Shown one piece after another: positions 8,861-34,458 of a stretch of 36,411 nucleotides of DNA (position 1 is the first letter of the stretch; each line of letters starts with the position of its first letter). This DNA comes from Clostridia bacterium (lineage in GTDB: Bacteria; Bacillota; Clostridia; Oscillospirales; CAG-272): positions 1 through 36,411 of the forward strand of contig JAFVRI010000166.1 of NCBI GenBank assembly GCA_017504335.1, written 5' to 3'. The translations under genes were made by a program, and so were the position numbers. The notes beneath the pieces were generated by a model. The model was not told the DNA's origin and ran no database searches. It saw only the letters and a list, made by a program, of their open reading frames with translations.

Positions 8861-9041
8861 CGTTACGACTCGTTTTTTCCGCTTTTAGAAAAAGCTTGGC
8901 AAAACTTTCATACAAATTATGACTTGACCCTTGTACATTCTTCTCGTCATGATTTTGCAGTAAAATATTGTTTTTCTCTAAGGTAGAAAACCATCGGACG
9001 GCTACACGTGCTACGCACAGCCACCGATGGTTTTCTTTTTG
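8861..9041 (+). repeat. family T repeat, copy A (3' of the nagA-like gene)
   Basis: It starts 7 nt after the stop. The order is TTACGAC (8863-8869), palindrome GCTTTTAGAAAAAGC, GCAAAACTTTCATACAAATTATGACTTGACCCTTGTACATTCTTCTCGTCATGATTT, then TTTCTCTAAGGTAGAAAACCATCGG...CCGATGGTTTTC TTTTT (hairpin 8986-9035 plus T-run). Confidence 0.85.
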
Positions 9042-9050
9042 TATTTATAA

Positions 9051-9203
9051 CGGGACGTCGAGGACGTCGTCCCCTACAAGATAGAAATTATTTGTCGTAC
9101 ATTCTCCTAAATAAACAAAGGCATACCCGATTGCTTATTTATTTAGGAAAATTGCATTGGCATCCCTCTATCATTTGTAGGGGGCGACGTCCTCGACGCC
9201 CCG
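9051..9203 (+). repeat. family H long-hairpin element, copy H1 (MITE-like)
   Basis: 27-nt terminal inverted repeats: CGGGACGTCGAGGACGTCGTCCCCTAC (9051-9077) and GTAGGGGGCGACGTCCTCGACGCCCCG (9177-9203). An inner inverted repeat is TCCTAAATAAA...TTTATTTAGGA. The element begins about 10 nt after the T-run of copy A. Confidence 0.8.
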
Positions 9204-9302
9204 AGAAACAATCGCATCCCGTTTTCTTCTTGTGTGAATCCTTCTGTGAAAATGCTCCCTCCGGGAGGGAGCTGAAAGCGACTGAGGGAGAGTGCGATCA
9301 CA
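9204..9302. repeat. GC-rich hairpin block
   Basis: Perfect palindrome GCTCCCTCCGGGAGGGAGC at 9254-9272, followed by GAAAGCGACTGAGGGAGAGTG. The segment GAAACAATCGCATCCC (9206-9221) recurs inverted at 18199-18214 next to copy H2. Confidence 0.5.
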
Positions 9303-9390
9303 ATAAAGAGAGACGGAACATCGCGGGCGAGCAATCAACCTACCAAATCGTTCAAGTCATTTTTTCATCGTTCATTCTTTTCCGATTCCC

Positions 9391-9420
9391 TTGACAAAGG
9401 CGGAAGAATTCTGTTATAAT
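9391..9420 (+). promoter_or_regulatory. promoter of the metallophosphoesterase/GH20 operon
   Basis: TTGACA (9391-9396), an 18-nt spacer, then TGTTATAAT (extended -10, TATAAT at 9415-9420). Confidence 0.6.
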
Positions 9421-9455
9421 GAAGGAAACAATTTATAACCAAAGGAGACCGAAAC

Positions 9456-10310
9456 ATGGAAACGGTTGAAAAGAAATACCCCCGTTGGTCGGAGATCACC
9501 ATTGACGTAGGAGCCACTGCTCCCTTCCGCGTGTTGCACATGAGCGACACTCATCTGACCGAAGCGGACGAGCGGGACGATGACCGCAAGCTCGCCTTAG
9601 CGGCACAGCGAAGCAAATATTTCGCCCGCGCGGGAATTTTGGTGGAGAGCGCGACCGAATACGCAAAAAAAGAAGGCGTTCCGATCTTCCATACGGGAGA
9701 TCTGATCGACTTCGTTTCTTATAAAAATCTGGACGTTGCCCGTACTTTTTCCGAGGAAAACGATCTGTTTATGGCAGCGGGCAACCACGAATTCAGCCTT
9801 TACGTAGGAGAGGCAGTTGAGGATGCCGCCTACCGTGCGCAGAGCCTTGACAAGGTACAGGCTGCCTTTAAGAACGACATCCGTTTTTCCAAGCGAGAGA
9901 TGGGTGGCGTGAATTTCGTGGCGTTGGATAACTCCTACTATCTCATTGAGGAATGGCAGCTGAATGCCCTCAAGGAGGTGGTTGCCGAGGGAAAGCCCGT
10001 GGTTCTGCTCATCCACAACCCGCTTTACTGTGAAGCACTTTACAACCATGAAATCGTAGAAAAGAAATCGGACTCCGCCTATCTGATGGCAGTTCCCGAG
10101 GAAAAAATGAAGGGCTACAGCGAACACCGCTTCCGTCAGCAGAAGGCAGACGAGACCACCCTTCTCGCCTATGACTACATCTGCTCCGAGCCCACCATCC
10201 GTGCTATCCTAACGGGTCATTTGCACGAGGATGCCGAATATGCCATCAATGACCGTCTGACCCAGTACATGACCCGATGCACCACCCTGAAGATCGTAAA
10301 TTTCCGGTAA
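9456..10310 (+). CDS. metallophosphoesterase (calcineurin-like)
   Basis: AAAGGAG RBS. Motifs are VLHMSDTHL, HTGDLIDF, AAGNHEF and LIHNP...GHLH. Confidence 0.85.
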   Translation: METVEKKYPRWSEITIDVGATAPFRVLHMSDTHLTEADERDDDRKLALAAQRSKYFARAGILVESATEYAKKEGVPIFHTGDLIDFVSYKNLDVARTFSEENDLFMAAGNHEFSLYVGEAVEDAAYRAQSLDKVQAAFKNDIRFSKREMGGVNFVALDNSYYLIEEWQLNALKEVVAEGKPVVLLIHNPLYCEALYNHEIVEKKSDSAYLMAVPEEKMKGYSEHRFRQQKADETTLLAYDYICSEPTIRAILTGHLHEDAEYAINDRLTQYMTRCTTLKIVNFR

Positions 10311-10325
10311 AAGGAGACAAAAAGC

Positions 10326-12176
10326 ATGAAAGTCAAGTTTTCGATTCCCGAAGAATTTTCCGTCGGCATTGCCCGCCTGCTTCCGCTTTTGGACTGTGAG
10401 GAGGGCGATGACATCCTCGTCCGTGCCGAGGCATCCGACCGTACGGGTGTGACCCTTCATAACGGTGAAGCGATCATTTACTACACAAAAAAACACCTCT
10501 TCTTCCGTGAGCTGTCGGTGCTTCTGACCGAGGCGAAGGAAAAGGACTCCTTCGAATGGTGGGAGGACGGTCACTTTGAGACGGTCTCTACCATGATCGA
10601 TACCTCCCGTTGTGCGGTCCCCACCGTCAAGACCGTGAAGAATCTGATCGACCGACTGGTGCTGATGGGCTACGGCATGGTCATGCTCTACACCGAGGAC
10701 GTGCTGACCCTTCCGAACCGCCCCTATTTCGGCTATATGCGCGGTCGCTACACCCCCGAGGAATTGCGTGCCGTGGACGACTATGCCTTCGAATACGGCA
10801 TTGAGGTCATTCCCTGTCTCGAATGCTACGGTCACATGGAAAAGTATCTCATGTGGAAGGAGGCATCTCCCATCAAGGATACGGCAAGGGTGCTTCTGGC
10901 AAGAGAGGAAAAGACCTTTGACTTTCTGGACGAGCTGATCGGTACGGTCTCTGCCTGCTTCCGCTCCCGCCGCATTCACATCGGCATGGACGAGGCATGG
11001 GATATGGGACGCGGAAAGTTTTTGGACAGAAACGGCTACGTTCCTGCCTTTGAGATCTTCAACGAATACATGGAGCGGCTGATCTCCATTACAAGGAAAT
11101 ACGGACTTCGCCCCATGATGTGGAGCGATATGTACTTCCGTGTCTGCCATCCGAAGCACAAATATTGCGCCCCCGAAACCGAAATCCCACCCGAGGTAGC
11201 GAAAAGAATCCCCGCCGAGGTGGAGCTGGTATTCTGGCATTACGGTGAGGAGTACGGCAGTGATGATTACATGCTCAAAAAGCACAAGGCGCTAAATCGT
11301 TCCGTGATCTTCGCGGGCGGTCTTTGGAGCTGGATCGGTCATTTTCCCGAGCATTATTACACCATGGATTGCACAAAGCAGTCTCTGCTTGCCTGCCGCG
11401 CAAATGACGTGCGGGAAGCCATGGCGACCCTTTGGACCAATGACAATGCCGAGTGCGATTGGTACACAAATCTGTTCGGACTCTCCTATTTCGCGGAGCT
11501 TTGCTACGACAAAGACCCGACCGAAGAAAAGCTGCGTCGCCGTTTCCATGCGGTCAGCGGCGGTAACTATGATGCCTTCCTGCTCATGAGCGACTACCAC
11601 AACAAGGATCTTGCCAAGGACTATGAGAACTATTCTCACCGCTTCCTCGGAAAGCCTCTCTTCTGGCAGGACATTATGGAGGGTCTCTATGACAGTCACT
11701 TAGAGGGCCATCCCATGAGTTCGCACTATGCCGAGGCGACCCGCCGTATGGCAGCCTACGCGGATGCCGAGGGCGAATGGCAGTTCCTCTACTCCTTTGC
11801 AGCCAAGGTCTTTGACTACATGGGCGTCAAAACCCTGATTGCCGAAAATCTGGTATCAGCTTACAAGCGGGGAGACCGCGCGCTTCTTTCGGAGATTGCC
11901 GAGATCCTGCTCCCTGCCCTCAAGGATGCCGTCATCCGTGTTCACGAGGCGCATAAGGCGATCTGGTTCAAGCACAATAAGATCATCGGTTGGTCCAACC
12001 TCGACGTGCGCTATGCCGGTGTTGCCGCCCGTTGCGATACCGCAAAGGCGCTCATCGAAGCCTACCTCGCAGGGGAGCTCGACTCCCTCGAAAAATTGGA
12101 CGAGCCCCGTCTCCACAAGCCCTTAGACGGATTTGTGCAGTACAGCGCCATCGCTACGCCGAATCTGAAAACGTGA
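10326..12176 (+). CDS. GH20-like beta-N-acetylhexosaminidase family protein
   Basis: AAAGGAG RBS. The segment order matches the GH20 catalytic barrel: MIDTSRC, MLYTED, IEVIPCLECYGHM, RIHIGMDEAWD (the D-E catalytic pair position). Confidence 0.7.
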   Translation: MKVKFSIPEEFSVGIARLLPLLDCEEGDDILVRAEASDRTGVTLHNGEAIIYYTKKHLFFRELSVLLTEAKEKDSFEWWEDGHFETVSTMIDTSRCAVPTVKTVKNLIDRLVLMGYGMVMLYTEDVLTLPNRPYFGYMRGRYTPEELRAVDDYAFEYGIEVIPCLECYGHMEKYLMWKEASPIKDTARVLLAREEKTFDFLDELIGTVSACFRSRRIHIGMDEAWDMGRGKFLDRNGYVPAFEIFNEYMERLISITRKYGLRPMMWSDMYFRVCHPKHKYCAPETEIPPEVAKRIPAEVELVFWHYGEEYGSDDYMLKKHKALNRSVIFAGGLWSWIGHFPEHYYTMDCTKQSLLACRANDVREAMATLWTNDNAECDWYTNLFGLSYFAELCYDKDPTEEKLRRRFHAVSGGNYDAFLLMSDYHNKDLAKDYENYSHRFLGKPLFWQDIMEGLYDSHLEGHPMSSHYAEATRRMAAYADAEGEWQFLYSFAAKVFDYMGVKTLIAENLVSAYKRGDRALLSEIAEILLPALKDAVIRVHEAHKAIWFKHNKIIGWSNLDVRYAGVAARCDTAKALIEAYLAGELDSLEKLDEPRLHKPLDGFVQYSAIATPNLKT

Positions 12177-12181
12177 TATTA

Positions 12182-12351
12182 CTTACGACTAATATTAGGT
12201 CGCTTTTGAAAAAGCTCCGCAAAACTTTTCATACAAGGATATTTTTATTTTTTATTCACGTTCCTTGTCTTTGTGTCACGTGTAAACGTATGGTTTCTCT
12301 CTAAGGTGGAAATCCGTCGGACCCTCTGGCGTCCCGACGGATTTCTTTTTG
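12182..12351 (+). repeat. family T repeat, copy B1 (3' of the GH20-like gene)
   Basis: TTACGAC at 12183-12189, 6 nt after the stop. GTCGCTTTTGAAAAAGCTCCGCAAAACTTTTCATACAA follows, then the subtype-2 core ATATTTTTATTTTTTATTCACGTTCCTTGTCTTTGTG, then TCTCTAAGGTGGAAATCCGTCGG...CCGACGGATTTC TTTTT (12309-12351). Confidence 0.85.
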
Positions 12352-12360
12352 TTTTTTTTT

Positions 12361-12580
12361 AATAAAAAAGAAAACCATCGGTGTCCTCCTTCGCTTCGCT
12401 TCGGGACATATGCTTGCGCATATGTTGGCTCAGCAACGCAGTCCGATGGTTTTCTACCTTAGAGAAAAAACAATATTCTTTTACGCAAATCATGACGAGA
12501 ACAATGCACAAAGGTCAAGCCAAAACAAGTAATAAAGTTTTTGCGCCACTTTTTTCAAAAAGTGGCAAATCGCGTCCCTC
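12361..12580 (-). repeat. family T repeat, copy B2 (3' end of the LacI gene, overlapping its last codons and stop)
   Basis: The minus strand reads GGGACGCGATTTGCCACTTTTTGAAAAAAGTGGCGCAAAAACTTTATTAC...GGCTTGACCTTTGTGCATTGTTCTCGTCATGATTTGCG...TTTTCTCTAAGGTAGAAAACCATCGG-(about 60-nt loop insert)-CCGATGGTTTTC TTTTTT. It lies convergent with copy B1. Confidence 0.85.
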
Positions 12581-13532
12581 TCAGCTCCGATGGCAGGCGG
12601 GTGAATTTTTCGTCGGGGAAAATGCCGGATTCCACGTATCGGTTAGCAAGGGAGAGTGCCTTGCGCATCTGCGTTTCGGGGGATTGAATCGCCAGAGCGG
12701 CGATCCGACCGTTTTCCCAATGCTTTTGTGCCGTAGGGGGAAACTCGAAGCCGATATAGCGGCAATCCATGCGATCCTTTAATTTATAGAGCGCATCGCA
12801 AGCGGAGGCGGTCACACCGTCAAAACCGAAAAGATAATCGAGCTTCTTTCCCGACCCGTCAATGGTTCGGGCAAGGTGGGAGGCATAGAGCGCAGAGGCT
12901 TCGGGTGGATCGATCATGAGGATCTCCGCACAGTCACCGAGCCCATCCGAGAATCCTCGCACACGCTCGATAGCGGAAACGCTTCCGTTGGGGCGAAGAA
13001 CCCCAACTGTCGGGCACTGCCCTCCATCGAACCGCACCGCCTCGGCAAGCGCCAATCCGTCTTCGTAAAAATCCGATCCCACAAAAAAGGTGTTCGGGAT
13101 AGGCGTATATTCGCAAAGCTGAAGAATCAGCATTCTGTCCGCCAGCCGAGCCAGCTCCTCTCGGAGTTCCTCTCCTGGAAGGGCGGCAAGGATCACCGCC
13201 GACACGCCCGCCTCAACAGCTTGGGAGAGACAAAGAGAAACTTCTCGATCTTCCCTGTCACGGTGCATAGCGGAATAGATCTTCAGCGTCTCGTTTTTAC
13301 CGCCCAAAACCGCCAGTGCCCGATTCCAGAAAAACTTGGGATTGTCGGGAAGAATCACACAAATACCGTTTCCTTCCCTGCGAGATGCCAAGGGTTCTCC
13401 CGCGCATACCGCGGCGCGTACCGCCTCTCTCGTCTCGTAATCGACCCCGGGGCAATTTCGGAGAACCTTGCTGACCGTAGAGACACTTTTGCCGCTTCGG
13501 TTGGCAATCTCGGTCATACTTTGTTTACTCAT
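12555..13532 (-). CDS. LacI family transcriptional regulator
   Basis: Track ORF 12555..13622, trimmed to MSKQSMTEIANRSGKSVSTVSKVLRN (LacI-type HTH) at 13532, with a G-rich SD upstream. The rest resembles a periplasmic-binding-protein-like sugar-binding core. Confidence 0.85.
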   Translation of the reverse strand: MSKQSMTEIANRSGKSVSTVSKVLRNCPGVDYETREAVRAAVCAGEPLASRREGNGICVILPDNPKFFWNRALAVLGGKNETLKIYSAMHRDREDREVSLCLSQAVEAGVSAVILAALPGEELREELARLADRMLILQLCEYTPIPNTFFVGSDFYEDGLALAEAVRFDGGQCPTVGVLRPNGSVSAIERVRGFSDGLGDCAEILMIDPPEASALYASHLARTIDGSGKKLDYLFGFDGVTASACDALYKLKDRMDCRYIGFEFPPTAQKHWENGRIAALAIQSPETQMRKALSLANRYVESGIFPDEKFTRLPSELRGTRFATF

Positions 13533-13568
13533 TCCAAAAATCCCCCCTATATTTGTGCATCTTGTACA

Positions 13569-13597
13569 TTGACGGAAAATCTTCCTCATGTTACAAT
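13569..13597 (+). promoter_or_regulatory. promoter of the 433-aa Gfo/Idh/MocA gene
   Basis: TTGACG (13569-13574), a 17-nt spacer, then TGTTACAAT (extended -10, TACAAT at 13592-13597). Confidence 0.55.
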
Positions 13598-13646
13598 GAA
13601 TCCATCGGTTATATCTTATCATAAAAACAAAAAGGAGTCAACCACT

Positions 13647-14948
13647 ATGGAAGCAAAAAACAAAAGACTGAAGATCGGTGTGTTCGGCGGTGCCCGCGGC
13701 TATACCATGATTCAGGTGCTCTTCTCCCATGATAAAGCGGACCTTGTTGCCGTCTGCGATAAGTACGAGCCTCTTCTGGATAAGGTCAAGGAAAAGGCAA
13801 AGGAGTTGGGTACCGAGGTTGCTTGCTACAACAATTTTGAGGATTTTCTGAATCACCCCGAGCTGGATGCGGTGGTTCTTGCCAACTATGCCACCGAGCA
13901 CGTTCCCTTTGCCATCCGTTGCATGAAAGCGGGCAAGCACGTGCTTTCCGAGGTACTTCCCTGCGAGACTATGGCAGAGGCAGTGGAGCTGATCGAGGCG
14001 GTAGAAGAGACCGGAATGGTTTATGCCTACGCAGAGAACTATTGCTATATGCAGCATTCCTTTGAGATGTGGCAGAGATACCAATCGGGTGAGATGGGCG
14101 AGGCTCACTATGGCGAGGGCGAGTACATTCACGATTGCTCCTCCATCTGGCCCCGTTGCACCTACGGTGACCGCAATCACTGGAGAAACCGCCTGTACGC
14201 TACCTTCTATTGCACCCACTCCTTGGGTCCGCTGATCGCCATGACAGGTCTGCGCCCCAAGTCGGTGGTCGGCTTTGAGACCAATCCCATCAAGGGCGGA
14301 CTGCTTGCGAAAGGAACCGCAGGTCTTGCGGGAATCGAAATGGTCACCATGGAGAATGGCGCCGTATTCAAGAGCATCCACGGCGGACTCAAGCGTGAGC
14401 CCGGCAGCATCAACTACCAGCTCTATTGCGACAAGGGCGTGATGGAATCGGGCAGACACTTCTCCCGTCATCCCGAGAGAAGCGTAGGCAACTGCCTCTA
14501 CGTCTATAAGGAAGGCGAAGAGCTTTGCAAGGGCGATTGGGAAAAGTACGACCCCGACTGCCAGATCGCCCGTGACGGCAGACTGAAGAGCGGCATCGAA
14601 TCCCACGCAGGCTCCGATTTCTACCCCACCCACTGCTTCATCGAAAAGATTTTGGGCGGTGAGGACGGAAAGTGGTCCATCGACGTCTATCAGGCGGTTG
14701 ACATGGGCATCTGCGGAATCCTTGCTTGGCGTTCGGTATTGAACGGAAATACCCCCATGGCTGTTCCCAATCTTCGCAATCAAGAGGAGCGTGACGCATG
14801 GAGAAACGACCGCGCCTGCACGACCCCCGAGAAGGCGGGCGACGAGCTGCTTCCCATTAGCTCCCACGAAGAGCTTCTGGTAGATCCCGGCGACGAGGTC
14901 TATGAAGAGATCCGCCGTCTGTGGCTGGCAGGAGAAAAGCAGAAATAA
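13647..14948 (+). CDS. Gfo/Idh/MocA family oxidoreductase (433 aa, long C-terminal domain)
   Basis: ATG at 13647 follows AAAGGAG and is in frame with track ORF 12876..14948. The N-terminus is KIGVFGGARGYTMIQ..., with a SEVLP variant of the EKP motif. The upstream 257 codons of the track ORF read through the antisense of the LacI gene and are not credible. Confidence 0.85.
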   Translation: MEAKNKRLKIGVFGGARGYTMIQVLFSHDKADLVAVCDKYEPLLDKVKEKAKELGTEVACYNNFEDFLNHPELDAVVLANYATEHVPFAIRCMKAGKHVLSEVLPCETMAEAVELIEAVEETGMVYAYAENYCYMQHSFEMWQRYQSGEMGEAHYGEGEYIHDCSSIWPRCTYGDRNHWRNRLYATFYCTHSLGPLIAMTGLRPKSVVGFETNPIKGGLLAKGTAGLAGIEMVTMENGAVFKSIHGGLKREPGSINYQLYCDKGVMESGRHFSRHPERSVGNCLYVYKEGEELCKGDWEKYDPDCQIARDGRLKSGIESHAGSDFYPTHCFIEKILGGEDGKWSIDVYQAVDMGICGILAWRSVLNGNTPMAVPNLRNQEERDAWRNDRACTTPEKAGDELLPISSHEELLVDPGDEVYEEIRRLWLAGEKQK

Positions 14949-14950
14949 AA

Positions 14951-15137
14951 ACGCGGACGCGAGGACGCGGGGGACGCGATTTGTCGCTTTTTAAAAAAAG
15001 CTCCGCAAAAACTTTATTACAGGTTATGGCTTGACCCTTCTGCATTGTCCTCGTCATTGTTTTTGTAAAAGAATATTCTTTTTTCTCTAAGGTGGAAATC
15101 CGTCGGACCCTGCTGCGTCCCGACGGATTTCTTTTTT
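14951..15137 (+). repeat. family T repeat, copy C (3' of the Gfo/Idh/MocA gene)
   Basis: ACGCGGACGCGAGGACGCGGGGGACGCGATTTGTCGCTTTTTAAAAAAAGCTCCGCAAAAACTTTATTACAGGTTATGGCTTGACCCTTCTGCATTGTCCTCGTCATTGTTT...TTTTCTCTAAGGTGGAAATCCGTCGG...CCGACGGATTTC TTTTTT. Confidence 0.85.
15095..15137. terminator. bidirectional intrinsic terminator shared by the Gfo gene (+) and the AraC gene (-)
   Basis: The GAAATCCGTCGG...CCGACGGATTTC hairpin is followed by TTTTTT. The convergent AraC stop codon lies at 15150..15148. Confidence 0.75.
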
Positions 15138-15147
15138 CATGATCGAT

Positions 15148-15975
15148 TCAACGGTGCAGTCTGCGAAATTCGGAAGGACTCATTCCCTCGGTACGCCGAA
15201 AGATCGAGCAAAAATAGCTCACATCCTCAAAGCCGACCGAATAAGCAGCCTCCCGAATAGAGGTCTCGGGATGCTCCAAGAGAACCTCCTTGCATTTCCG
15301 TATCTTGACCATGTTGACATATTCAAGGGGCGTTTGACACATAACCCTTTTGAAGGACGCGCAAAAATGCTGTGGTGTACATCCGACCTGCTCCGCAAGC
15401 TCCGAGAGCGAGATCGGACGGTGATAATTTTGTTCGATGTAGGCAAGAACGGGACCGAGCTTCGCCAGACGATGGGTCATGGACGGTGTTTTTTCGGAGG
15501 AAAGAAACCGAAGAAGATCGGAAAGAATGGCGTATACCAAAGAGGAGCACAGAATATTTTTTGCGGGGAGAGCGGACACAGCCGTGTCATACAGATCCTC
15601 CAGCTTTCCCGCAAGCACATAGGGTGTAGTGACCGTCAGCACGCTTGATTCCCGAACACCCAGGATCTCTCGGATAAACCGCTCGGTTTCGGTTCCCGAA
15701 AAGATGATCCAATCCACGGTCCAACCGGGAGTCAGCGCGAAATATTCGTGGGGCTCGTTGGGAAAGAGAAGCATTCCCTTTCCCTCCTCCAACGTGTAGG
15801 TATTTCCCCGAAGATACAGCTCCCCCTTCCCCTCTCGGCATTGGATCCACTGATATCGGGGATGTCCGATGGGACGGTGAATATGCTCCTGCTCATACCG
15901 AATGCCAACCCCCGCAAAATAATATGGGAGCGTCAGGTCAAATTCCGTAGCGACGGGTAATATGAATTTTTTCAT
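15148..15975 (-). CDS. AraC family transcriptional regulator (cupin N-terminus plus HTH)
   Basis: ATG at 15975 (AGAGGTG RBS); the track start at 15984 is a GTG inside the RBS. The C-terminal HTH is ...AAYSVGFEDVSYFCSIFRRTEGMSPSEFR. Confidence 0.85.
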   Translation of the reverse strand: MKKFILPVATEFDLTLPYYFAGVGIRYEQEHIHRPIGHPRYQWIQCREGKGELYLRGNTYTLEEGKGMLLFPNEPHEYFALTPGWTVDWIIFSGTETERFIREILGVRESSVLTVTTPYVLAGKLEDLYDTAVSALPAKNILCSSLVYAILSDLLRFLSSEKTPSMTHRLAKLGPVLAYIEQNYHRPISLSELAEQVGCTPQHFCASFKRVMCQTPLEYVNMVKIRKCKEVLLEHPETSIREAAYSVGFEDVSYFCSIFRRTEGMSPSEFRRLHR

Positions 15976-15995
15976 AAAGATCACCTCTTTTATAG

Positions 15996-16024
15996 ATTAT
16001 ATCACAAGAATACAAAAAGGTCAA
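15996..16024 (-). promoter_or_regulatory. promoter of the second AraC gene
   Basis: The minus strand reads TTGACC (16024..16019), a 17-nt spacer, then TGATATAAT (TATAAT at 16001..15996). Confidence 0.5.
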
Positions 16025-16059
16025 TCTTAATATTGCCATATTTCTTGAAAATAATCTGA

Positions 16060-16088
16060 TTGACAGGGCGATCCGAATATGATATTCT
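16060..16088 (+). promoter_or_regulatory. candidate promoter of the GH42 gene
   Basis: TTGACA (16060-16065), a 17-nt spacer, then TATTCT (16083-16088). The -10 is weak. Confidence 0.4.
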
Positions 16089-16120
16089 ATCCTCATCAAC
16101 CATAAAAAGGAGAATCCGCA

Positions 16121-18154
16121 ATGAGAAAAAAACTGACTGCAGACCGTTTGACCCTTGGCGTTTGTTATTATCCCGAGCATTGGGATCCCTCTCTTTGGCG
16201 AGAGGATCTTCGCCGCATGAAGGAAATGGGAATTTCGGTCATTCGTATTGCCGAATTTGCCTGGAATAAGTTTGAGCCGGAAGAGGGGATCTTCACCTTC
16301 GAATTTTTCGACTCCTTCATGGAGATCGTAAAGGAAGAAGGGATGCGCGTCATCTTCTGCACCCCCACAGCCACTCCCCCCGCGTGGATGAGCCACAAGT
16401 ATCCCGAGATCCTCAATGCCGATCTAAACGGCAATCTGATTCGCCACGGTCACCGTCGGCACTATAATATGACAAGCGATGCCTATCGCGCGTTTGTGGC
16501 AAGGATCACGGAAAAGCTGGGAGAGCATTACGGAAAGCACCCGAACATTGTCGCATGGCAGTTGGACAACGAGATCAACTGTGAATGCCATCTCTACTAT
16601 TCCGAAAGTGACCACAAAGCGTTCCGCGACTACCTCAGAAAGCAGTTCAAAACCCTTGACGCGCTCAATGATGCCATTGGCGCCGTGTTTTGGAATCAAA
16701 CCTACACCGATTGGGAAGAGGTGTATCTGACACGCCCTACTCTTCACAAGGGACATACCAATCCGCATATGGAGCTTCTGGAGCGTCGTTTTATTTCCGA
16801 CACCGTAATCGATTTTTTCAAGCTGCAGACCGACATCCTTCGCAAGTATACCGACGCGAAAATCACCACCAACGGACTCTTCCGCTATATCGACTATCAC
16901 CGTCTGACCGATGAGGTCCTGGATTTTATTACCCTTGACAACTACCCGCATTTCAACGAAAAACGGGACGAGCTCAATAATGTGGAGCAAAGACGCAAGG
17001 CGACCTATCGCTTGGCAAGGACCAGAAGCATCTCTCCCATCTTCGGCATCATGGAGCAGCAATCGGGTGTGGGCGGCTGGACCTTTTGGCACCCAACGGA
17101 AGCGCCAAAGCCGGGATACCTTCGCCTTTGGGCATTGCAATCCATCGCCAACGGCGCCGACTTTGTCAGCTTCTTCCGCTATCGGACCTGCTCCTTTGGC
17201 ACGGAGATCTACTGGCATGGCATCCTCAATTACGACAATCGGGACAACCGTAGAGTGGAAGAAGTCAAAAAGCTTTGGCGCGATCTGCAAAAGATCGAAC
17301 AGATCGCCGGCAAGCCGTTCAAGGCAGAGCTTGCCATTCTCAGAGATTATGACAATGAATTGGACGGAGAAAATGATCTTTGGCACGGCGATGCCGATGG
17401 GATCAGCTATCCCGCATGGGTTTCCGCCGCCGAGAAGGCGCATATCCCCTTTGATCTGGTATATATCAACGATGACACCAACCCCGCTGAGCTAAGCAAC
17501 TATAAAATGGTGGTATATCCCCATGCCGCGATCCTCACCGAGAAGCGTGCAGGCATGCTCCGTTCCTATGCGGAAGCGGGAGGCACGGTTCTGTTCGGAT
17601 GCCGCACGGGCTACAAGGATCTATACGGTCGATGCCCCATGATGCCCATGCCCGGATACGCGGCCGAGCTTTGCGGTATCACGGTGGATGACTTTACCGC
17701 TGTATCGAATGAGGGAGATGGCGCCTGGGTCGAGCTGGACGGTCAGCGGATCAGCGCCCCCGTCTTTAATGATATTCTGACCCCCATTGATGCCGATACG
17801 GTAGCAACCTTTGACAATCGCTACTATAAGGGTGCTTGCGCCCTTTCCGAAAAAAAGGTCGGAAAAGGAAAGGCTCTCTATTTCGGAGGCGCGTTTGGCG
17901 AGGACACCGCAAGAGCGATCCTCAAACGGGAAAGCATCGAGGCTCCCGATCAATGGAGCAGGATCCTTTCCCTGCCCGAGACGGTCGGTCTTACCGTCCG
18001 AGGCGAATACGCGTTCCTGCTGAATTACAGCGAGCAAGCCGTAGAAATCCCCTGCACCGAGCCATTATTCAGCCTATTTGAGGAAACAACCGTAACCGAA
18101 ACTCTCCTACTCGCTCCGCTGGATGTGGCAGTCTTAAAACGCAAAAATCCGTAA
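16121..18154 (+). CDS. GH42 beta-galactosidase
   Basis: AAAGGAG RBS. The sequence runs LGVCYYPEHW...IRIAEFAWNKFEPEEG...FCTPTATPPAW...WQLDNEINCE (acid/base Glu)...IMEQQSG (nucleophile Glu). At 677 aa the length is typical for GH42. Confidence 0.9.
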   Translation: MRKKLTADRLTLGVCYYPEHWDPSLWREDLRRMKEMGISVIRIAEFAWNKFEPEEGIFTFEFFDSFMEIVKEEGMRVIFCTPTATPPAWMSHKYPEILNADLNGNLIRHGHRRHYNMTSDAYRAFVARITEKLGEHYGKHPNIVAWQLDNEINCECHLYYSESDHKAFRDYLRKQFKTLDALNDAIGAVFWNQTYTDWEEVYLTRPTLHKGHTNPHMELLERRFISDTVIDFFKLQTDILRKYTDAKITTNGLFRYIDYHRLTDEVLDFITLDNYPHFNEKRDELNNVEQRRKATYRLARTRSISPIFGIMEQQSGVGGWTFWHPTEAPKPGYLRLWALQSIANGADFVSFFRYRTCSFGTEIYWHGILNYDNRDNRRVEEVKKLWRDLQKIEQIAGKPFKAELAILRDYDNELDGENDLWHGDADGISYPAWVSAAEKAHIPFDLVYINDDTNPAELSNYKMVVYPHAAILTEKRAGMLRSYAEAGGTVLFGCRTGYKDLYGRCPMMPMPGYAAELCGITVDDFTAVSNEGDGAWVELDGQRISAPVFNDILTPIDADTVATFDNRYYKGACALSEKKVGKGKALYFGGAFGEDTARAILKRESIEAPDQWSRILSLPETVGLTVRGEYAFLLNYSEQAVEIPCTEPLFSLFEETTVTETLLLAPLDVAVLKRKNP

Positions 18155-18158
18155 AAAA

Positions 18159-18198
18159 GAAAACCGTCGGGACGCAAGGACCCGACGGATTTCTTTTT
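18159..18198 (+). terminator. intrinsic terminator of the GH42 gene (same hairpin family as the family T tails, inverted loop)
   Basis: GAAAACCGTCGGGACGCAAGGACCCGACGGATTTC followed by TTTTT. It starts 5 nt after the stop. Confidence 0.75.
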
Positions 18199-18216
18199 GG
18201 GGATGCGATTGTTTCA

Positions 18217-18365
18217 CGGGACGTCGAGGACGTCGTCCCCTACGAGACAGATGTGATTTATCGCACATTTTTCTATTGAAACAAAGGGATTTTCGATTGT
18301 TTATTTAGAAAAATTGCAAAGGCTTTCCACCATCATTTGTAGGGGACGACGTCCTCGACGTTCCG
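18217..18365 (+). repeat. family H long-hairpin element, copy H2 (diverged)
   Basis: The arms are CGGGACGTCGAGGACGTCGTCCCCTAC (18217-18243) and GTAGGGGACGACGTCCTCGACGTTCCG (18339-18365). The interior is collinear with H1 but more diverged. The element is wedged between two terminator hairpins. Confidence 0.75.
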
Positions 18366-18580
18366 TTACAAATAAAGAAATCCGTGGTGGCGTAGCAGCC
18401 GTCCACGGATTTCTACCTTAGAGAAAGAACATTCGCTCACATCCCAAACAAAGACGAGAAACGTGAACAAAAATAAAAATATTTTTGTATGAAAGTTTTT
18501 GCGGAGCTTTTTTCAAAAAGCGACAAAAAGTTTTTGCCAAGCTTTTTTCAAAAAGCGTAAAAATTCCAGTCGTAACTAAT
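18366..18580 (-). repeat. family T repeat, copy D (3' of cysS), with a tandemly duplicated head palindrome
   Basis: The minus strand reads TGA ATTAG TTACGAC TGGAATTTTTACGCTTTTTGAAAAAAGCTTGGCAAAAACTTTTTGTCGCTTTTTGAAAAAAGCTCCGCAAAAACTTTCATACAAAAATATTTTTATTTTTGTTCACGTTTCTCGTCTTTGT...TTTCTCTAAGGTAGAAATCCGTGG...CCACGGATTTC TTTATTT. The palindromes lie at 18506-18521 and 18541-18556. Confidence 0.85.
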
Positions 18581-29007: not shown

Positions 29008-29048
29008 GCTTTACCCCTTTCTTTTTTCGGGACTTGCCCCTTCTGCGC

Positions 29049-29180: not shown

Positions 29181-29184
29181 CTCC

Positions 29185-29213: not shown

Positions 29214-29249
29214 GGGCTTTGATCGATTTTATGGAAGTTGGTTATGACC

Positions 29250-29392
29250 GATTTTTGTCGCTTTTTGGAAAATTCTTACGACTCATATTTTTGTCGCTTT
29301 TGAAAAAGCTCCGCAAAACTTTCATACAAATTATGGCTTGGGGAACATAGACTCCTCGTCCTTGTGTAGGATGTAAGTGATTCTTTTTTTAT
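29250..29392 (+). repeat. family T repeat, copy E1 (no upstream gene; head duplicated, tail missing)
   Basis: TTTTTGTCGCTTTTTGGAAAA, then TTACGAC (29276-29282), then ATTTTTGTCGCTTTTGAAAAAGCTCCGCAAAACTTTCATACAAATTATGGCTTG...CCTCGTCCTTGTGTAGGATG. The copy is truncated at a T-run where copy H3 begins. Confidence 0.75.
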
Positions 29393-29394
29393 AA

Positions 29395-29543
29395 CGGGGC
29401 GTCGAGGACGTCGCCCCCTACAAGAGATAGAGAGATGCCTTTGTAATTTTCCTAAATATGCAATCGGATATACGTTTGTTTATTTAGGAGAATGCGCGAC
29501 AAATTCCATCTATCCCGTAGGGGGCGACGTCCTCGACGCCCCG
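29395..29543 (-). repeat. family H long-hairpin element, copy H3 (interior inverted relative to H1)
   Basis: The arms are CGGGGCGTCGAGGACGTCGCCCCCTAC (29395-29421) and GTAGGGGGCGACGTCCTCGACGCCCCG (29517-29543), extended by TATAA/TTATA. The reverse complement of the interior aligns with H1 (GATAGA..ATTTGTCG..CATTCTCCTAAATAAACAAA...CCGATTGC.TATTTAGGAAAATT.CA..GGCATC.CTCTATC). Confidence 0.8.
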
Positions 29544-29547
29544 TTAT

Positions 29548-29722
29548 AAAAAGAGAAGAAATCCGTCGGGACGCAGCAGGGTCCGACGGATTTCTACCTT
29601 AGAGAAAAAAGAATCGCTCATATCCTACACAAAGACGAGGAACGTGTAGTAAGGTAAAGAAATAATTTGTATGAAAAGTTTTGCGGAGCTTTTTTCAAAA
29701 GCGACCAAAATCCATCCCTCAA
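29548..29722 (-). repeat. family T repeat, copy E2 (3' of the PocR/AraC gene)
   Basis: The minus strand reads TAG TTAGTTGAGGGATGGATTTTGGTCGCTTTTGAAAAAAGCTCCGCAAAACTTTTCATACAAATTATTTC...ACGTTCCTCGTCTTTGTGTAGGATATG...TTTTCTCTAAGGTAGAAATCCGTCGGACCCTGCTGCGTCCCGACGGATTTC. The hairpin is identical to that of copy C. Confidence 0.85.
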
Positions 29723-31804: not shown

Positions 31805-31819
31805 GAGAGAAGAGTAGCG

Positions 31820-32722
31820 ATGTCCTGGTTCCTTTTGGTTTTGATGATCGTGGTCTATACCCTGCAGTCCTTTCTGACACGGCTCTATTCCGATCACTAT
31901 CCGGGCAAGCCCGAGATGGCTGCCCCTGTGTTTACGGTAGTCAGCGGCATTGCCGTGGTGATCGCGTCCTTCGCGGTCAGCGGCTTTCACTTTGACATGT
32001 CCTGGCAGACCCTTGTATTCGGTGCCGTGGGCGGCATTGCCATGGTGATCTACAACGAATCGATCATGAAGTCGGTGCAGAGCGGACCCTATTCGGTCAT
32101 GATGGTGTTCCAGATCTCGGGTGCCATTATCATTCCCATTTTCTCGGATGCGCTGATCTTTGGTGCCAACATAACCCCCGTGCAGATCATCTGCATTTCG
32201 GTGGTACTGGTTTCGGTCTATCTGGTGTCCAAGAAGGACGGAGAGGAGAAATGCAAAAAGGGCTTTTGGGTTGCCTCCTTTGCCCTCGGCATTGCCAACG
32301 GTGTCTACGGAAGCCTTCTGAACATCCAGCAGGGAATCACGGGTCCTGAGGAGAAGGAAGAAATGCTGGCGGTGATCTTCGGTGTGGCGGTGATCATTTC
32401 CGCGACACGGCTCGCCATTGGGCAAAGACGGGAATTTTTCTCGGTCATGAAGCAAACGAGGATCTCGGCGATCTATCTGATCGTCTGCTCAGCGGTGGTA
32501 GTAGCGGGACTTTTCCTTCTGACCGCCCTGATCGGCATGATGGATCTGGCGATCCTTTATACCTTTGACAGCTCCAGTATGCTGGTGCTGAGTGTGATCT
32601 GCTCCTGCATTTTCCTGAAGGAGAAGATCTCCACCCTGAATATCATCGGATGCGTGACCATGTGCGCGGCGCTCATCTGTATGTCAGGCTGGGATTGGTT
32701 TGTCAGTATGTTTGCGAAGTAA
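31820..32722 (+). CDS. DMT superfamily (EamA-like) permease
   Basis: 300 aa with about 10 hydrophobic helices in two similar halves and no soluble domain. Confidence 0.7.
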   Translation: MSWFLLVLMIVVYTLQSFLTRLYSDHYPGKPEMAAPVFTVVSGIAVVIASFAVSGFHFDMSWQTLVFGAVGGIAMVIYNESIMKSVQSGPYSVMMVFQISGAIIIPIFSDALIFGANITPVQIICISVVLVSVYLVSKKDGEEKCKKGFWVASFALGIANGVYGSLLNIQQGITGPEEKEEMLAVIFGVAVIISATRLAIGQRREFFSVMKQTRISAIYLIVCSAVVVAGLFLLTALIGMMDLAILYTFDSSSMLVLSVICSCIFLKEKISTLNIIGCVTMCAALICMSGWDWFVSMFAK

Positions 32723-32740
32723 GAAAATAAACGGAAAGAA

Positions 32741-32767
32741 CCGCCCTCCTCGGAGGGCGGTTTTCTT
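32741..32767 (+). terminator. intrinsic terminator after the DMT permease gene
   Basis: CCGCCCTCC-tc-GGAGGGCGG followed by TTTTCTT. Confidence 0.75.
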
Positions 32768-32768
32768 G

Positions 32769-33060
32769 GTTGGCTCCTCAGCCGCGAAGGAGCTTGACGC
32801 ATCGAAAAAAACGCCAACCGATTCTCATACGGAGAGCATCCCCCATCAAACAGGCTATTCCTTATCCGTAGTGGCGTTCTGCGAGCGCCCGCGAGCGAAC
32901 ACAGTTCGCCCCTACGGAATCCTCAAAAGCCTCGCCCTTCGGGAGAGGTGGCAGGCGAAGCCTGACGGAGAGGGAGGAACATATCCCCTCTCACCCGCTA
33001 CGCGGGAGCTCTCCCCAAGGGAGAGCCTTTGGTTTCACGGCGGACGGGGAATGAGCAATT
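32769..33060. repeat. GC-rich hairpin-dense intergenic block
   Basis: A series of short GC hairpins: GGTTGGC..GCTCCT-cagccgcg-AAGGAGC..GCCAACC; CCGTAGTGGCG...CGCCCCTACGG; CCTCGCCC-ttcg-GGGAGAGG; GAGAGGG...CCCTCTC; CTCTCCC-caa-GGGAGAG. It shares TCGCCCCTAC with the family H arms and GAGGGAG-type motifs with 9204-9302. Confidence 0.5.
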
Positions 33061-33077
33061 TTCATGGAAATATCCGA

Positions 33078-33106
33078 TTGACATTTTTTGCTCAAAGTGC
33101 TATAAT
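33078..33106 (+). promoter_or_regulatory. promoter of the M20 amidohydrolase gene
   Basis: TTGACA (33078-33083), a 17-nt spacer, then TATAAT (33101-33106). Confidence 0.65.
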
Positions 33107-33140
33107 TGAAAAAAAGATTCTCATGAAGGAAGGCAAAATT

Positions 33141-34295
33141 ATGGAATCCAACGTTGTACGCATCCGCCGTCAGCTTCATATGTACCCCGAGATCGGCTTC
33201 GATCTGCCCCTCACTCTGCAGTTTTTGCGGGACGAGATGGATGCCATCGGGGTAGACTATACAGAGCAATACGGAAAAAGCTCGATCGTCGCCACGGTAA
33301 ACCCCGAAAAAACGAATTTTACCTTAGGCATTCGTGCGGATATGGATGCTCTTCCCATGGAGGAAAAGAATGACGTGCCCTACCGTTCCCGCATCAAGGG
33401 GCAGATGCATGCCTGCGGTCACGATGCCCATACGGCGATCGCTTTGGAGACCCTTCGCCGTGTATACGAGGAGCGGGACGCCATTGGCTGTCGGGTAAAA
33501 TTCCTGTTTCAGCCCTCCGAGGAGGCAGGACCGTCGGGTGCCATGCTCATGGCGGAGGACGGTGTCATGGATGACATCGACTGCATCGTGGCACTTCATT
33601 GCGATACCACCATCCCCGTGGGCAAGGTTGCCGTGACCGAGGGGGCGCAAAATGCCATCAGCGACGGTTTTACCTTGGTATTCCACGGAAAAAGCTCCCA
33701 CGCGGGCAATCAGGAAAAGGGAATTGACGCCATTATGATGGCGGTAAAGGCATATACGCAGATCGAATTTATGATCGCCAAGGATTTTTCCGCCAAGGTT
33801 CCCATGATCTTCAACGTGGGTGCCATTCACGGCGGTGTGACCAATAACATTTTAGCGGAGTCGTGTACCATGTTCTGCACCCTTCGTTCTCATACCGAGG
33901 AAACCGCCGCCTATGCGCTGGACAAGATCCGTCGAATCGGTGAATCGGTTGCCGAGCTGGAGGGCGGTCGCTTTGAAATGATCCCCAACAAGCACTATCC
34001 CATCGTCTACAACGACGCGGGTATGGTGCAACGGATCCGCCGTGCCGCTTGCGTAGTGGTGGGTGCGGACAACCTCGGCGAAAACAAGCGCTCTATGGGC
34101 GGTGAGGATTTCTCCTACTTCGCCATGAAAAAGCCCGGTGGATATTTCCGTCTCGGTGTCCGCAATGAGGAAAAGGGGATCGTCAACGGGGTGCATCACG
34201 ACAATTTCGATCTGGACGAGGCTGCCCTCGAGATCGGGGTCCGGATGTTCCTGCGGATCATTCGGGACGCGGGGGACGCGATCAGCCGTTTTTAA
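33141..34295 (+). CDS. M20D family amidohydrolase (N-acyl-amino-acid/hippurate hydrolase-like)
   Basis: ATG at 33141 follows GGAAGG (alternative ATG at 33123). The sequence runs IRRQLHMYPEIGF...GIRADMDALPM...QMHACGHDAHTA...FQPSEE...GGEDFSYF. Confidence 0.88.
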   Translation: MESNVVRIRRQLHMYPEIGFDLPLTLQFLRDEMDAIGVDYTEQYGKSSIVATVNPEKTNFTLGIRADMDALPMEEKNDVPYRSRIKGQMHACGHDAHTAIALETLRRVYEERDAIGCRVKFLFQPSEEAGPSGAMLMAEDGVMDDIDCIVALHCDTTIPVGKVAVTEGAQNAISDGFTLVFHGKSSHAGNQEKGIDAIMMAVKAYTQIEFMIAKDFSAKVPMIFNVGAIHGGVTNNILAESCTMFCTLRSHTEETAAYALDKIRRIGESVAELEGGRFEMIPNKHYPIVYNDAGMVQRIRRAACVVVGADNLGENKRSMGGEDFSYFAMKKPGGYFRLGVRNEEKGIVNGVHHDNFDLDEAALEIGVRMFLRIIRDAGDAISRF

Positions 34296-34458
34296 AAACC
34301 AAACTTCGCTTCGCCGCAACACTTGTATTACAAAATATGGCCGGATCTTCGTATAGCGTTCTCGTCATAATTTGCGTAAAATCATAGGATTGTTCTCTAA
34401 AGCAGAAAACCGTCGGACGCCTATATGTGCCGCGCACACCGCCGATGGTTTTCTTTTT
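34264..34458 (+). repeat. family T repeat, copy F (degenerate; overlaps the last codons and stop of the M20 gene)
   Basis: GGGACGCGGGGGACGCGATCAGCCGTTTTTAAAAACC...CTTGTATTACAAAATATGGCC...GTTCTCGTCATAATTTGCGTAAAAT...TTCTCTAAAGCAGAAAACCGTCGG...CCGATGGTTTTC TTTTT (hairpin 34405-34453). Confidence 0.7.

Follow-up and report, generated by a model that had tools for sequence, protein, structure and literature searches.

Why do so many genes in one stretch of clostridial DNA (the window, 36,411 nt) end in what looks like the same sequence? The original prediction had described a dense, directional repeat family bound to gene 3' ends. In MAFFT alignments, a repeat search and nhmmer searches, all eight proposed copies of this 170–220 bp repeat, here termed T, were recovered at the predicted positions, exactly or to within a few bases. 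Seven are full; the eighth (E1), counted as full in the prediction, lacks the whole tail hairpin. The tail motif TCTCTAAGGTRGAAAWCCRT was matched seven times in the window with no more than three mismatches, against 0.01 matches expected by chance, and the 5' box AAAAGCTYSGCAAAAMYTTT eight times (0.04 expected), at a density of approximately one T copy per 4.5–5 kb. In every copy, 125 nt upstream of the tail hairpin can be aligned. The family is therefore far above chance, and it is present in a second species too, at non-orthologous genes.

T is a mosaic of four modules. The first is a variable tandem array of purine-rich octamers, (GGAYGCGR)n, with diverged versions TTACGACT and GGGATGGA, which abuts or overlaps the stop codon; the junction motif of the original prediction is real but is the last unit of this array, or of a diverged form of it. 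The second is an AT-cored hairpin, P, followed by GCAAAACTTTYATAC, whose arms occur as the compensated variants GCCAC/GTGGC, GCCGC/GCGGC and GTCGC/GCGAC. The third is a variable AU-rich core of about 85 nt, with at least three subtypes once the sister metagenome-assembled genome (MAG) is included, and not two as had been proposed. The fourth consists of the block TCTCTAAGGT(A/G)G, a 12-bp GC hairpin, H, and a U-run; the H stem varies between 12 and 13 bp and is followed by TTTCTTTTT in most copies. Compensatory changes are seen in four of the 13 pairs of H, where G-U is commoner than A-C; the T-run comes directly after. A conserved structured 3' UTR RNA had also been suggested, and this holds for the two terminal hairpins, which are structured and covarying, but not for the core, which is unstructured (z about -1). 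With its GC hairpin, its U-run and a same-strand gene upstream, the tail is predicted to be a Rho-independent (intrinsic) terminator. Searches of the window with the Rfam 15 covariance models yielded no matches, with only sub-threshold noise on copy C.

Pfam domain assignments gave a gene map of the window, and this bears out the prediction for seven copies, each of which points the same way as the gene before it and starts at that gene's stop codon. Copy A (8861..9045, plus strand, core type 1, tail hairpin at about 8985–9036) begins 6 nt past the stop of a NagA-like amidohydrolase gene (8854), and copy B1 (12182..12355, plus strand, core type 2, tail hairpin at about 12309–12345) 5 nt past that of a GH20 gene (12176). 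Copy C (14951..15140, plus strand) follows the GFO stop (14948) and comprises an octamer array (14953–14978), a P hairpin (about 14983–15003) and the tail block with H (15079–15131), its T-run extending to 15137. Copy D (18368..18580, minus strand, core type 2), in which the P hairpin is duplicated, starts at the cysS stop (18581), and copy E2 (29548..29722, minus strand, core type 2) at the stop of a PocR/AraC gene (29723). In the two remaining full copies the stop codon lies inside the repeat, a detail in which the prediction needs amending. Copy B2 (12361..12580, minus strand, core type 1 with a long hairpin loop) contains the final seven codons of the LacI gene that it follows, the stop (12555–12557) being the TGA of the TTTTTGA centre of the 5' palindrome. 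Likewise, the M20 peptidase ORF that precedes copy F (34264..34463, plus strand, the most diverged copy) crosses the octamers and stops at 34293–34295, in the TTTTTAA centre of the palindrome. The partial copy E1 (29250..29392, plus strand), with a duplicated 5' module and a deleted tail hairpin, is located upstream of an ATPase gene and not after a stop codon. Tabulation over the window and the sister MAG JAZSIF01, as the prediction had proposed, gave the same picture: T is co-oriented in all 16 copies that have a known upstream gene, and starts 0–125 nt (mostly less than 30 nt) 3' of its stop codon. T-flanked genes include the housekeeping genes cysS, eno (enolase), whiA and ahpC.

T is accompanied in the window by other pieces. 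Next to it lies a second family, M, which is REPIN-like and consists of two GC hairpins, each with a GTAG head, that are inverted and spaced by 95 nt; its arms are formed by GTAG and then GGGGCGACGTCCTCGACGCCCC. One M unit (9044..9204) abuts the tail of copy A, another (18213..18372) lies between a bare hairpin and copy D, and the third (29387..29551) is enclosed by the inverted pair E1 and E2. The ATAACGG...GACGTCG found after four T tails belongs to M and not to T. The bare hairpin is a tail-type terminator hairpin, AAGAAAACCGTCGGGAC...CCCGACGGATTTCTTTTT (18157..18199, plus strand), which follows the GH42 gene without a 5' module.

Among the loci sampled, full T is restricted to the window and two related MAGs; other close relatives are without it and possess bare H hairpins or other terminators there. 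Comparison of orthologous loci, likewise proposed beforehand, revealed T to be patchy: congeners may have it at the same site, lack it there or carry another subtype. At the cysS 3' site the window carries core type 2, relative L006 a type 3 copy joined to a second, convergent one, and L013 another variant, L010 and L012 have a bare hairpin only, and nothing T-related was found in L007–L009. The hairpin of copy C can be aligned with a lone terminator hairpin of L010. The M20 peptidase ends in RDAGDAISRF where copy F is present and in RDNMNGISF in its orthologs; L016, a relative with an empty site, has a plain terminator there. Native ORF ends and native terminators have thus been replaced by T. 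T also borders three rearrangements relative to congeners: the LacI-GFO block, which is bracketed by B2 and C and absent from L010; the inversion of a 15-kb AraC..GH42 block, with T, M and H at the junction; and the Mem_trans inversion. In addition, assemblies break at T sites.

The patchy distribution at orthologous sites and the replaced ORF ends are more easily explained by a non-autonomous element than by a 3' UTR passed on vertically, and to this extent the non-autonomous mobile element of the original prediction stands. What it does not have are the usual marks of transposition: no terminal inverted repeats or target-site duplication were found at any T copy, and no transposase, RAYT or integrase is encoded in the window or near any copy. 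Recent transposition is not demonstrated, since no two copies are near-identical; the best identities between copies are 86–91% over parts, with 98% reached over one 59-nt tail only, and the most similar pair, B2 and C, share 86% over 138 nt. Flanks are only about 80% identical, so that no clean filled/empty pair with a precise insertion is available. Non-orthologous copies from different species are nevertheless 72–88% identical, whereas synonymous sites of cysS are only 60–68% identical between species, which argues that the conserved blocks of T are under constraint. A host function and recognition by an element's enzyme fit this constraint equally well.

The first 35–50 bases of T are a hairpin motif that occurs after stop codons in many unrelated bacteria. 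The P motif, about 35 nt long, is nearly invariant across phyla and was found together with purine repeats in at least 120 metagenome contigs with GC contents of 0.37–0.69, diderm hosts included. Of the P instances, 67% lie within 100 nt after a co-oriented stop codon, compared to 19% for random positions. The metagenome copies add at least 10 further compensated arm types. In AT-rich contigs (L028, L037, L067) a minimal form is seen, consisting of the stop codon, P and a terminator hairpin; where contigs are GC-rich, convergent genes are separated by a pair of P modules in facing orientation. No mobility gene, or any other linked gene, recurs near P in 127 instances of the motif, and the only Rfam match in 20 P-motif loci was one tRNA. 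The 5' module of T is the local member of a far wider, multi-phylum family of stop-codon-abutting hairpins. T itself was not found in well-studied bacteria, plasmids or phages.

In order to place T, we compared it with known repeat systems. Like REP/BIME elements of Enterobacteria and REPIN-RAYT systems, T is a high-copy extragenic hairpin repeat that is located after genes and co-transcribed with them. REP/BIME elements are also mosaics of hairpins and conserved linker motifs, and act as, or adjoin, terminators and mRNA stabilisers, as is predicted for T. A GT(A/G)G head (GGTAG or GGTGG) 5' of an imperfect palindrome, typical of REPs, precedes the tail hairpin in 11 of the 16 T copies and is found in the M arms. 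However, T is long and strictly directional, and its 5' hairpin is AT-cored and without a GTAG head. The inverted doublet of REPINs is formed only by M, whose units are true GTAG-hairpin doublets; T has a single, directional tail hairpin, and the label 'REPIN-like' of the original prediction consequently fits M and not T, despite the head of the T tail. REPIN systems have a cognate RAYT (a Y1 HUH transposase) in the same genome, usually flanked by REPs. No RAYT was seen with T, and no Y1 transposase in 36 kb of this MAG together with about 70 kb of two T-bearing relatives. P is also common to several phyla, unlike species-specific REPs. REP/RAYT systems being normally confined to one species, the near-invariance of P across phyla counts against a REP/RAYT-like reading of T.

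BOX elements of Streptococcus pneumoniae (boxA-boxB(n)-boxC), about 100–300 bp in length and compared here by description, are likewise modular and intergenic, belong to a Firmicute, vary in the number of internal units, have no coding capacity and are transcribed with their neighbours. Unlike T, they have no fixed relation to stop codons, no strict co-orientation and no operon-terminator end. Correia elements (CREE) of Neisseria are also small and densely spaced, and provide gene ends with terminators or processing sites, as T would, but they carry 26-bp terminal inverted repeats and a TA duplication. PATEs derived from IS200/IS605 resemble T: they have no terminal inverted repeats, carry a subterminal hairpin near either end and lie in one orientation only with respect to a short 5' target. 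TTAC, the target of IS608, precedes four T copies (A, B1, D and E1), and the others follow GGAYGCGR, the array that stands before most copies, or GGGATGGA; however, the two hairpins of T share no sequence, and no TnpA or TnpB was found with T. The ends of T (octamers and P on one side, H and the T-run on the other) are not mutual inverted repeats, unlike those of MITEs. P corresponds to none of the repeat families in this comparison and to no Rfam family.

The reading to which we give about an even chance places T among the non-autonomous mosaic repeats, alongside REP, BIME and BOX, as one that resides in operon 3' UTRs and is co-transcribed with the operons. Its tail hairpin would then serve as the Rho-independent terminator of the operon and would hold off 3' exonucleases. 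Further copies might arise through duplication or recombination, and a possible agent of spread is a hairpin-recognising (HUH/RAYT-like) enzyme whose single gene lies elsewhere in the genome. Only those copies would survive whose place and orientation let them provide a working terminator without damage to the gene, and we propose that this selective survival accounts for the 3'-end and orientation bias. Recombination between copies may later reshuffle T module by module.

The main rival, which we hold to be possible but on balance unlikely, is that T, and above all P, is a host cis-acting signal selected at gene 3' ends, selfish spread not being the main reason for its presence. It could be a 3' UTR RNA element bound by a conserved factor and involved in mRNA 3'-end stability or processing, or it could titrate a CsrA-type protein by means of its purine-rich, GGA-containing array. 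It might also be a directional insulator, with H terminating sense transcription; on the antisense strand the complement of the purine repeats would present a C/U-rich, G-poor tract after the hairpin, where Rho could load and end antisense transcription before it reaches the gene. Conservation above that of synonymous sites, covariation in both hairpins and the sense orientation of every copy inside its transcript are as expected of such a signal, as are the minimal form in AT-rich contigs and the clustering of P near stop codons over so wide a range of GC contents, diderms included, without a linked mobility gene. Yet T is missing at the same genes in close relatives, no factor that binds it is known, and the core is unstructured and subtype-dependent. 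Absence from well-studied bacteria, plasmids and phages and the lack of an Rfam match weigh in the same direction, while the duplications, deletions and fusions of modules (D, E1 and the L006 cysS pair) resemble repeat dynamics. A more sweeping reading, about as probable as the host signal, makes P a previously undescribed, structure-defined hairpin which a single conserved machine recognises in trans; T would be one genus's elaboration of a pan-bacterial 3'-end element. P would here be composed of purine-rich tandem repeats specific to each lineage, a hairpin whose GC outer stem covaries and whose inner stem is U5/A6, and AAAAC-UUU; it abuts stop codons, and its hosts are gut Clostridia, GC-rich peat diderms and sediment organisms, with occurrences even in frame inside NRPS genes. 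The machine might be a widely transferred hairpin-specific mobilising enzyme targeting gene 3' ends or, alternatively, a universal host factor whose targets are mRNA 3' ends or antisense transcription.

It is improbable that T or P is a site-specific recombination site, marking the 3' boundary of movable gene blocks like attC or pdif and read as a folded hairpin by a distant recombinase. Like integron attC sites and Vibrio cholerae repeats (VCR), which are dense in chromosomal arrays, T is an imperfect hairpin with bulged bases that starts at or over the upstream stop codon, co-oriented and densely spaced, and both its presence at the borders of the LacI-GFO block and the two inversions and the facing P pairs of GC-rich contigs would suit such a role. 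On the other hand, the aligned ends contain no RYYYAAC or GTTRRRY core sites; no integrase (such as intI) or recombinase is found in the window or recurs near copies; the flanking genes are core housekeeping ones, often convergent and not in arrays; and T carries a predicted terminator. Homologous recombination between dispersed inverted repeats accounts for the rearrangements without a dedicated enzyme. Very improbable is that each T is a small RNA gene running from its own promoter (TTGACC-18-CATGAT in the core) to the tail terminator. A 9/12 promoter-like match is found in A and B2, and at metagenome locus L062 P is followed by GGCTTGACC upstream of rbfA. No conserved promoter was found in T, though: core types 2 and 3 lack the match, as do most copies overall, and genuine promoters in the window match 11–12 of 12 positions. 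That the copies are ordinary intrinsic terminators, independently evolved and alike by chance or composition, agrees with the terminator form of the tail and with nothing else; it is refuted by the alignable upstream 125 nt, the nhmmer results, the motif counts and the copies at non-orthologous genes of a second species, and the original prediction is supported on this point.

If T occurs once per 5 kb throughout the genome, a large proportion of the operons of these uncultured gut Clostridia would take their terminator and 3' UTR from one repeat family. This would bear on the annotation of gene ends, on assembly, because contigs break at T copies, and on genome rearrangement, because T copies lie at inversion and insertion borders. 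P would be a non-autonomous element that targets gene ends with great success and is unusually well conserved, or else an overlooked general 3'-end signal, and both readings are now testable, since the motif is defined.

The conserved H stem AAWCCRTCGG recalls DUS/USS pairs, which also form terminator stems of conserved sequence; it is confined to hairpin pairs and not dispersed in genes, and was therefore rejected as an uptake sequence. Finally, a possible remnant of the P module, CTGTTTTTACGCTTTTTAGCCTTAAAAGCTC (3030..3064, minus strand), which was read by eye and not recovered by nhmmer, lies directly after the AraC stop codon.

The repeat family recognised in the window, family T, proved to be real. 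All eight intervals assigned to it could be aligned over ~175 columns with MAFFT, and the same repeat families were recovered by a repeat search of the window. A nhmmer profile built from seven copies located these at positions 8865–9045 (copy A, plus strand), 12185–12355 (B1, plus), 12580–12361 (B2, minus), 14968–15140 (C, plus), 18528–18368 (D, minus), 29720–29548 (E2, minus) and 34270–34463 (F, plus), with E-values between 1e-39 and 1e-52. The remaining one, E1 (29280–29389, plus), matched model positions 7–118 only; it is a tail-less, partial copy upstream of a P-type ATPase gene, so that seven rather than eight of the predicted copies are full. Each of the seven lies directly 3′ of a stop codon and on the strand of the respective gene, as had been proposed: according to the Pfam gene map, the preceding genes encode a NagA-like amidohydrolase, GH20, LacI, a GFO oxidoreductase, CysS, a PocR/AraC regulator and an M20 peptidase. 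Chance terminators can be rejected as an explanation, since the tail motif is found seven times and the 5′ box eight times in the window, versus 0.01 and 0.04 occurrences expected from shuffles.

Alignment of 15–16 copies from two species resolved four modules. The first consists of one to five tandem purine-rich octamers (GGAYGCGR), their number being variable; in some copies a diverged unit (TTACGACT, GGGATGGA) takes their place. The second is hairpin P, composed of an outer arm, T4–6, G, A5–7 and the complementary arm, and followed by GCAAAACTTTYATAC. Arms of the common form, GTCGC/GCTCC, pair poorly, and six copies carry fully compensated arms (GCCAC/GTGGC, GCCGC/GCGGC or GTCGC/GCGAC). The third module, a core of ~85 nt, falls into at least three subtypes, not the two discerned originally, and only TCCTCGTC.TTGT is common to all of them. 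The folding of the core is unremarkable, z-scores of minimum free energy being mostly near −1 (−3.1 for L6c, −2.2 for D and −2.1 for M3); the M1b segment, which included its tail hairpin, scored −4.6. The tail comprises TTTTTCTCTAAGGT(A/G)G, the stem GAAAWCCRTCGG, a variable loop, CCGAYGGWTTTC and a T-run, and its GC hairpin (H) has 13 pairs, four of which show compensatory changes. This hairpin is all that RNAalifold predicts, with nothing in the core, and a structured RNA spanning the whole of T was accordingly dismissed. In the RAYT/REP literature, a GT(A/G)G head immediately 5′ of a hairpin is the signature of REP elements, and the T tail has the same head. A role of the tail stem as an uptake sequence was discarded, the stem word occurring almost exclusively in hairpin pairs. 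CodY, Spo0A and parS boxes, anti-Shine-Dalgarno pairing and similarity to 16S helix 45 gave no fit when judged by eye. At gathering and E-value thresholds there was no Rfam match in the window, on copy C or, apart from one tRNA, at 20 of the P-motif loci described below, and the window holds no tRNA or tmRNA genes.

Behind four T tails, the sequence ATAACGG(G/A)ACGTCGAGGACGTCG is the arm of a separate family, M. Its near-palindromic units of ~155 bp (9044–9204, 18213–18372 and 29387–29551) each adjoin the T-run of a T tail and contain two GTAG-headed GC hairpins in inverted orientation at a spacing of 95 nt, with inverted arms of 28–35 nt (GTAG, then GGGG(C/A)GACGTCCTCGACG(C/T)CCC). Paired inverted hairpins are the layout of REPINs; M has this layout and T does not, and the REPIN-like character suggested for T therefore belongs to its neighbour. 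At copies A and D the far side of M runs on into GAAACAATCGCATCCC, resembling the octamer junction of T. One M arm, single, is present in the IMG/VR contig L015. Additional small GC hairpin repeats, for instance CCCTTCCCC..GGGGAAGG and GTAG-headed hairpins of the type CTGTAGGGGAGGCC..GGCCTCCC, are present in L013 (8200–8516), which belongs to the same lineage, and in this viral contig (1800–1960); thus, several hairpin repeat families coexist.

Hundreds of relatives of cysS are 83–95% identical to it; those with a source name are designated 'Clostridia bacterium', and one 'Ruminococcaceae/Oscillospiraceae'. When each GTDB species, represented by one genome, was scanned for the tail pattern, the sole match was the metagenome-assembled genome (MAG) JAZSIF01 ('Eubacteriales bacterium'), whose cysS is 95% identical to that of the window in protein sequence and 86% in nucleotide sequence. 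The tail pattern had no matches in the JGI/ENA metagenome scan or in IMG/VR. The loci of JAZSIF01 contain 11 further T copies of the same layout, located behind glpP, whiA, ahpC, an aminotransferase gene, eno, a DUF4368 fragment, a GH2/MFS gene, a GFO gene and cysS; copy density is four per 21 kb in its locus L006 and eight per 36 kb in the window. An upstream gene could be identified for 16 copies from the two genomes, and every one of them has the orientation of its gene (2^-16, ~1.5e-5, considering orientation alone), bearing out the orientation rule first noticed in the window.

Between the window and JAZSIF01, T copies at non-orthologous sites share 72–88% identity over 50–200 nt, about as much as copies of a single genome do. 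For cysS, identity at third-codon positions is only 60–68% among the four closest genomes. It follows that conserved blocks of T, which are more alike between species than these positions, are being maintained, whether through selection or through ongoing amplification from conserved masters. No near-identical pair was found among the copies compared, so that these give no evidence of recent transposition. T has also overwritten gene ends. The LacI and M20 reading frames enter the repeat and stop at the centre of the 5′ palindrome (TTTTTGA or TTTTTAA). The M20 protein of the window terminates in ...RDAGDAISRF* instead of the ...RDNMNGISF* of its orthologs, the altered residues being encoded by octamers GGGACGCGGGGGACGCGA, and the last seven codons of LacI (GTRFATF*) correspond to an octamer and a P arm. 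In both proteins length is kept to within one residue.

The site 3′ of cysS differs between genomes, and T is not found everywhere (identities here are those of the CysS protein to that of the window). The window has a T copy of core type 2, whereas in JAZSIF01 (L006, 95%) a type 3 copy and the one belonging to the convergent gene are fused head-to-head, and both hairpins have been deleted. L013 (94%) carries another variant, with four octamers and a different large 5′ hairpin. In L010 and L011 (93%) the stop codon is immediately followed by a bare hairpin whose stem is the same (AAAATCCGTCGG...CCGACGGATTTT), L012 (92%) has a different hairpin, the next gene follows after 30 nt in L007 (89%), and L008 and L009 (85%) contain other, unrelated sequence. 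At the nucleotide level, cysS identity is 87% between L006 and L010, 86% between the window and L006, and 84% for L013. L010 thus falls inside the T-bearing set, which implies that gain, loss or replacement of T takes little evolutionary time.

The P module extends beyond this genus. A JGI/ENA metagenome scan with RAAAAAGCTCCGCAAAAMYTT, which represents the right arm of P plus the adjoining box, retrieved at least 120 loci; peat-moss, sediment and human-gut assemblies are among their sources. Their similarity to T is limited to model positions ~6–60. The left arm GTCGC-Tn, although outside the search pattern, is present in 122 of 127 instances among the matches listed; the P matches are therefore homologous and not due to chance. 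GC content of the listed contigs ranges from 0.37 to 0.69. One of them (GC 0.64) encodes a TonB-dependent receptor, indicating a diderm host; on another, the sole named relative of an ADH among the matches listed is a Methylovirgula protein (82% identical), and contigs of ADH orthologs differ in synteny from the GC-rich P element locus. The same loci hold 72 further P-like hairpins not constrained by the pattern, with at least ten fully compensated arm pairs, including GTTAC/GTAAC, GTTC/GAAC, CTTC/GAAG, CAGCC/GGCTG and GCTGC/GCAGC. What defines P is thus its structure, together with the T/A core and the AAAAC-TTT flank. The T-less relative L007 has two P-like hairpins (62–92 and 383–410) with other compensated arms (CCGCC/GGCGG and CCACC/GGTGG); both lie in the spacer that separates its convergent PocR/AraC and lepA genes, and AAAACTTT comes after each. 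The L008–L013 and L016 loci contain none.

In the metagenomic loci, P likewise abuts gene ends. A co-oriented frame of at least 100 codons stops −25 to +100 nt upstream of 67% of P instances versus 19% of random positions, the stop-to-P distance having its mode at 0–14 nt. Purines are enriched in the 30 nt 5′ of the hairpin (0.61 vs 0.49), which form lineage-specific short tandem repeats (AAGYAAGC, GGGGAGAC, GGGGAWAC) that often hold the stop codon. A terminator-like hairpin commonly lies 3′ of P; where genes converge, two P modules point towards one another with a GC hairpin in the middle. When 2,074 ORFs from the 120 listed loci were clustered all against all, only generic families emerged (ABC ATPases, HemC, RbfA, an NRPS), with no transposase among them, and the motif had no recurrent protein family as its neighbour. 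In four listed loci (L079, 4735–4755; L036; L056; L131) the motif lies in frame within an NRPS condensation domain, where together with its GCCTCCGGCGG flank it encodes KVFAELFSKSDPPEA within the variable stretch ahead of the PFDL motif. In a different element of ~250 bp (L021, L048, L068, L071, L075 and similar), framed by GCCTCCGGCGG...CCGCCGGAGGC terminal inverted repeats, the P motif occupies one end and a related palindrome (CAAACTTTTCAAAAGTTTG) the opposite end. No PLSDB plasmid or INPHARED phage carries the motif; blastn searches of these databases with copy C and the motif returned nothing useful regarding a plasmid or phage origin, and IMG/VR contained one real match, on a viral contig (GC 0.62). 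Judging from metagenome contigs and a few marker genes, P appears to be a stop-codon-abutting, structure-defined hairpin common to distant bacteria. No published description was found in Rfam or in the literature by descriptive words or sequence strings.

The reading best supported is that T is a non-autonomous mosaic repeat of the REP/BIME/BOX kind, residing in 3′ untranslated regions, where it would supply the operon terminator. Its orientation bias could have arisen through selection for a working terminator or, alternatively, because insertion was coupled to H hairpins already present. According to the main rival, P would be a host 3′-end signal and T with it; the conservation of P across phyla and the lack of an associated mobility gene speak for it, but congeners easily do without T. 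It is possible, albeit the case is weak, that T represents an attC-like recombination site. An sRNA gene can be rejected: a promoter-like match, at 9 of 12 positions, is present in two T copies only and missing from the other core types, so that T has no conserved promoter, whereas the real promoters of the window match the sigma-70 consensus at 11–12 of 12 positions.

Copies of T are also present at rearrangement borders. L010 has the gene order of the window with compact spacers, and 8 nt 3′ of its GH20 gene a single hairpin, alignable with that of copy C, is common to GH20 and the convergent AraC gene. The counterpart of this site in the window is occupied by B1, B2, LacI, GFO and the 5′ part of C. 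The LacI and GFO block (12361–15140), missing from L010, looks like a composite insertion, because it is flanked by B2 and C, which are inverted relative to each other and are the two T copies of the window most alike (86% over 138 nt). In addition, a 15-kb block from AraC to GH42 (~3065–18154) is inverted relative to cysS in comparison with L010; one junction (18157–18580) contains copy D, an M unit and a bare hairpin, and the other a P-like remnant behind the AraC stop codon (~3030–3064). The Mem_trans gene 3′ of copy F is inverted with respect to L016, in which a plain terminator follows M20. The site 3′ of nagA, occupied by copy A and M in the window, coincides exactly with an N-run in L010 (17160–17169) and with the contig end in L011 (17156), and the seemingly T-less L010 may therefore conceal an unassembled repeat there; several T copies in MAGs lie at contig ends. 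A promoter-like site (3033–3005, minus strand) is directed into the region 161–2942, which contains a plus-strand ORF of 744 aa without a Pfam match, overlapping several minus-strand ORFs, and may represent a decayed gene.
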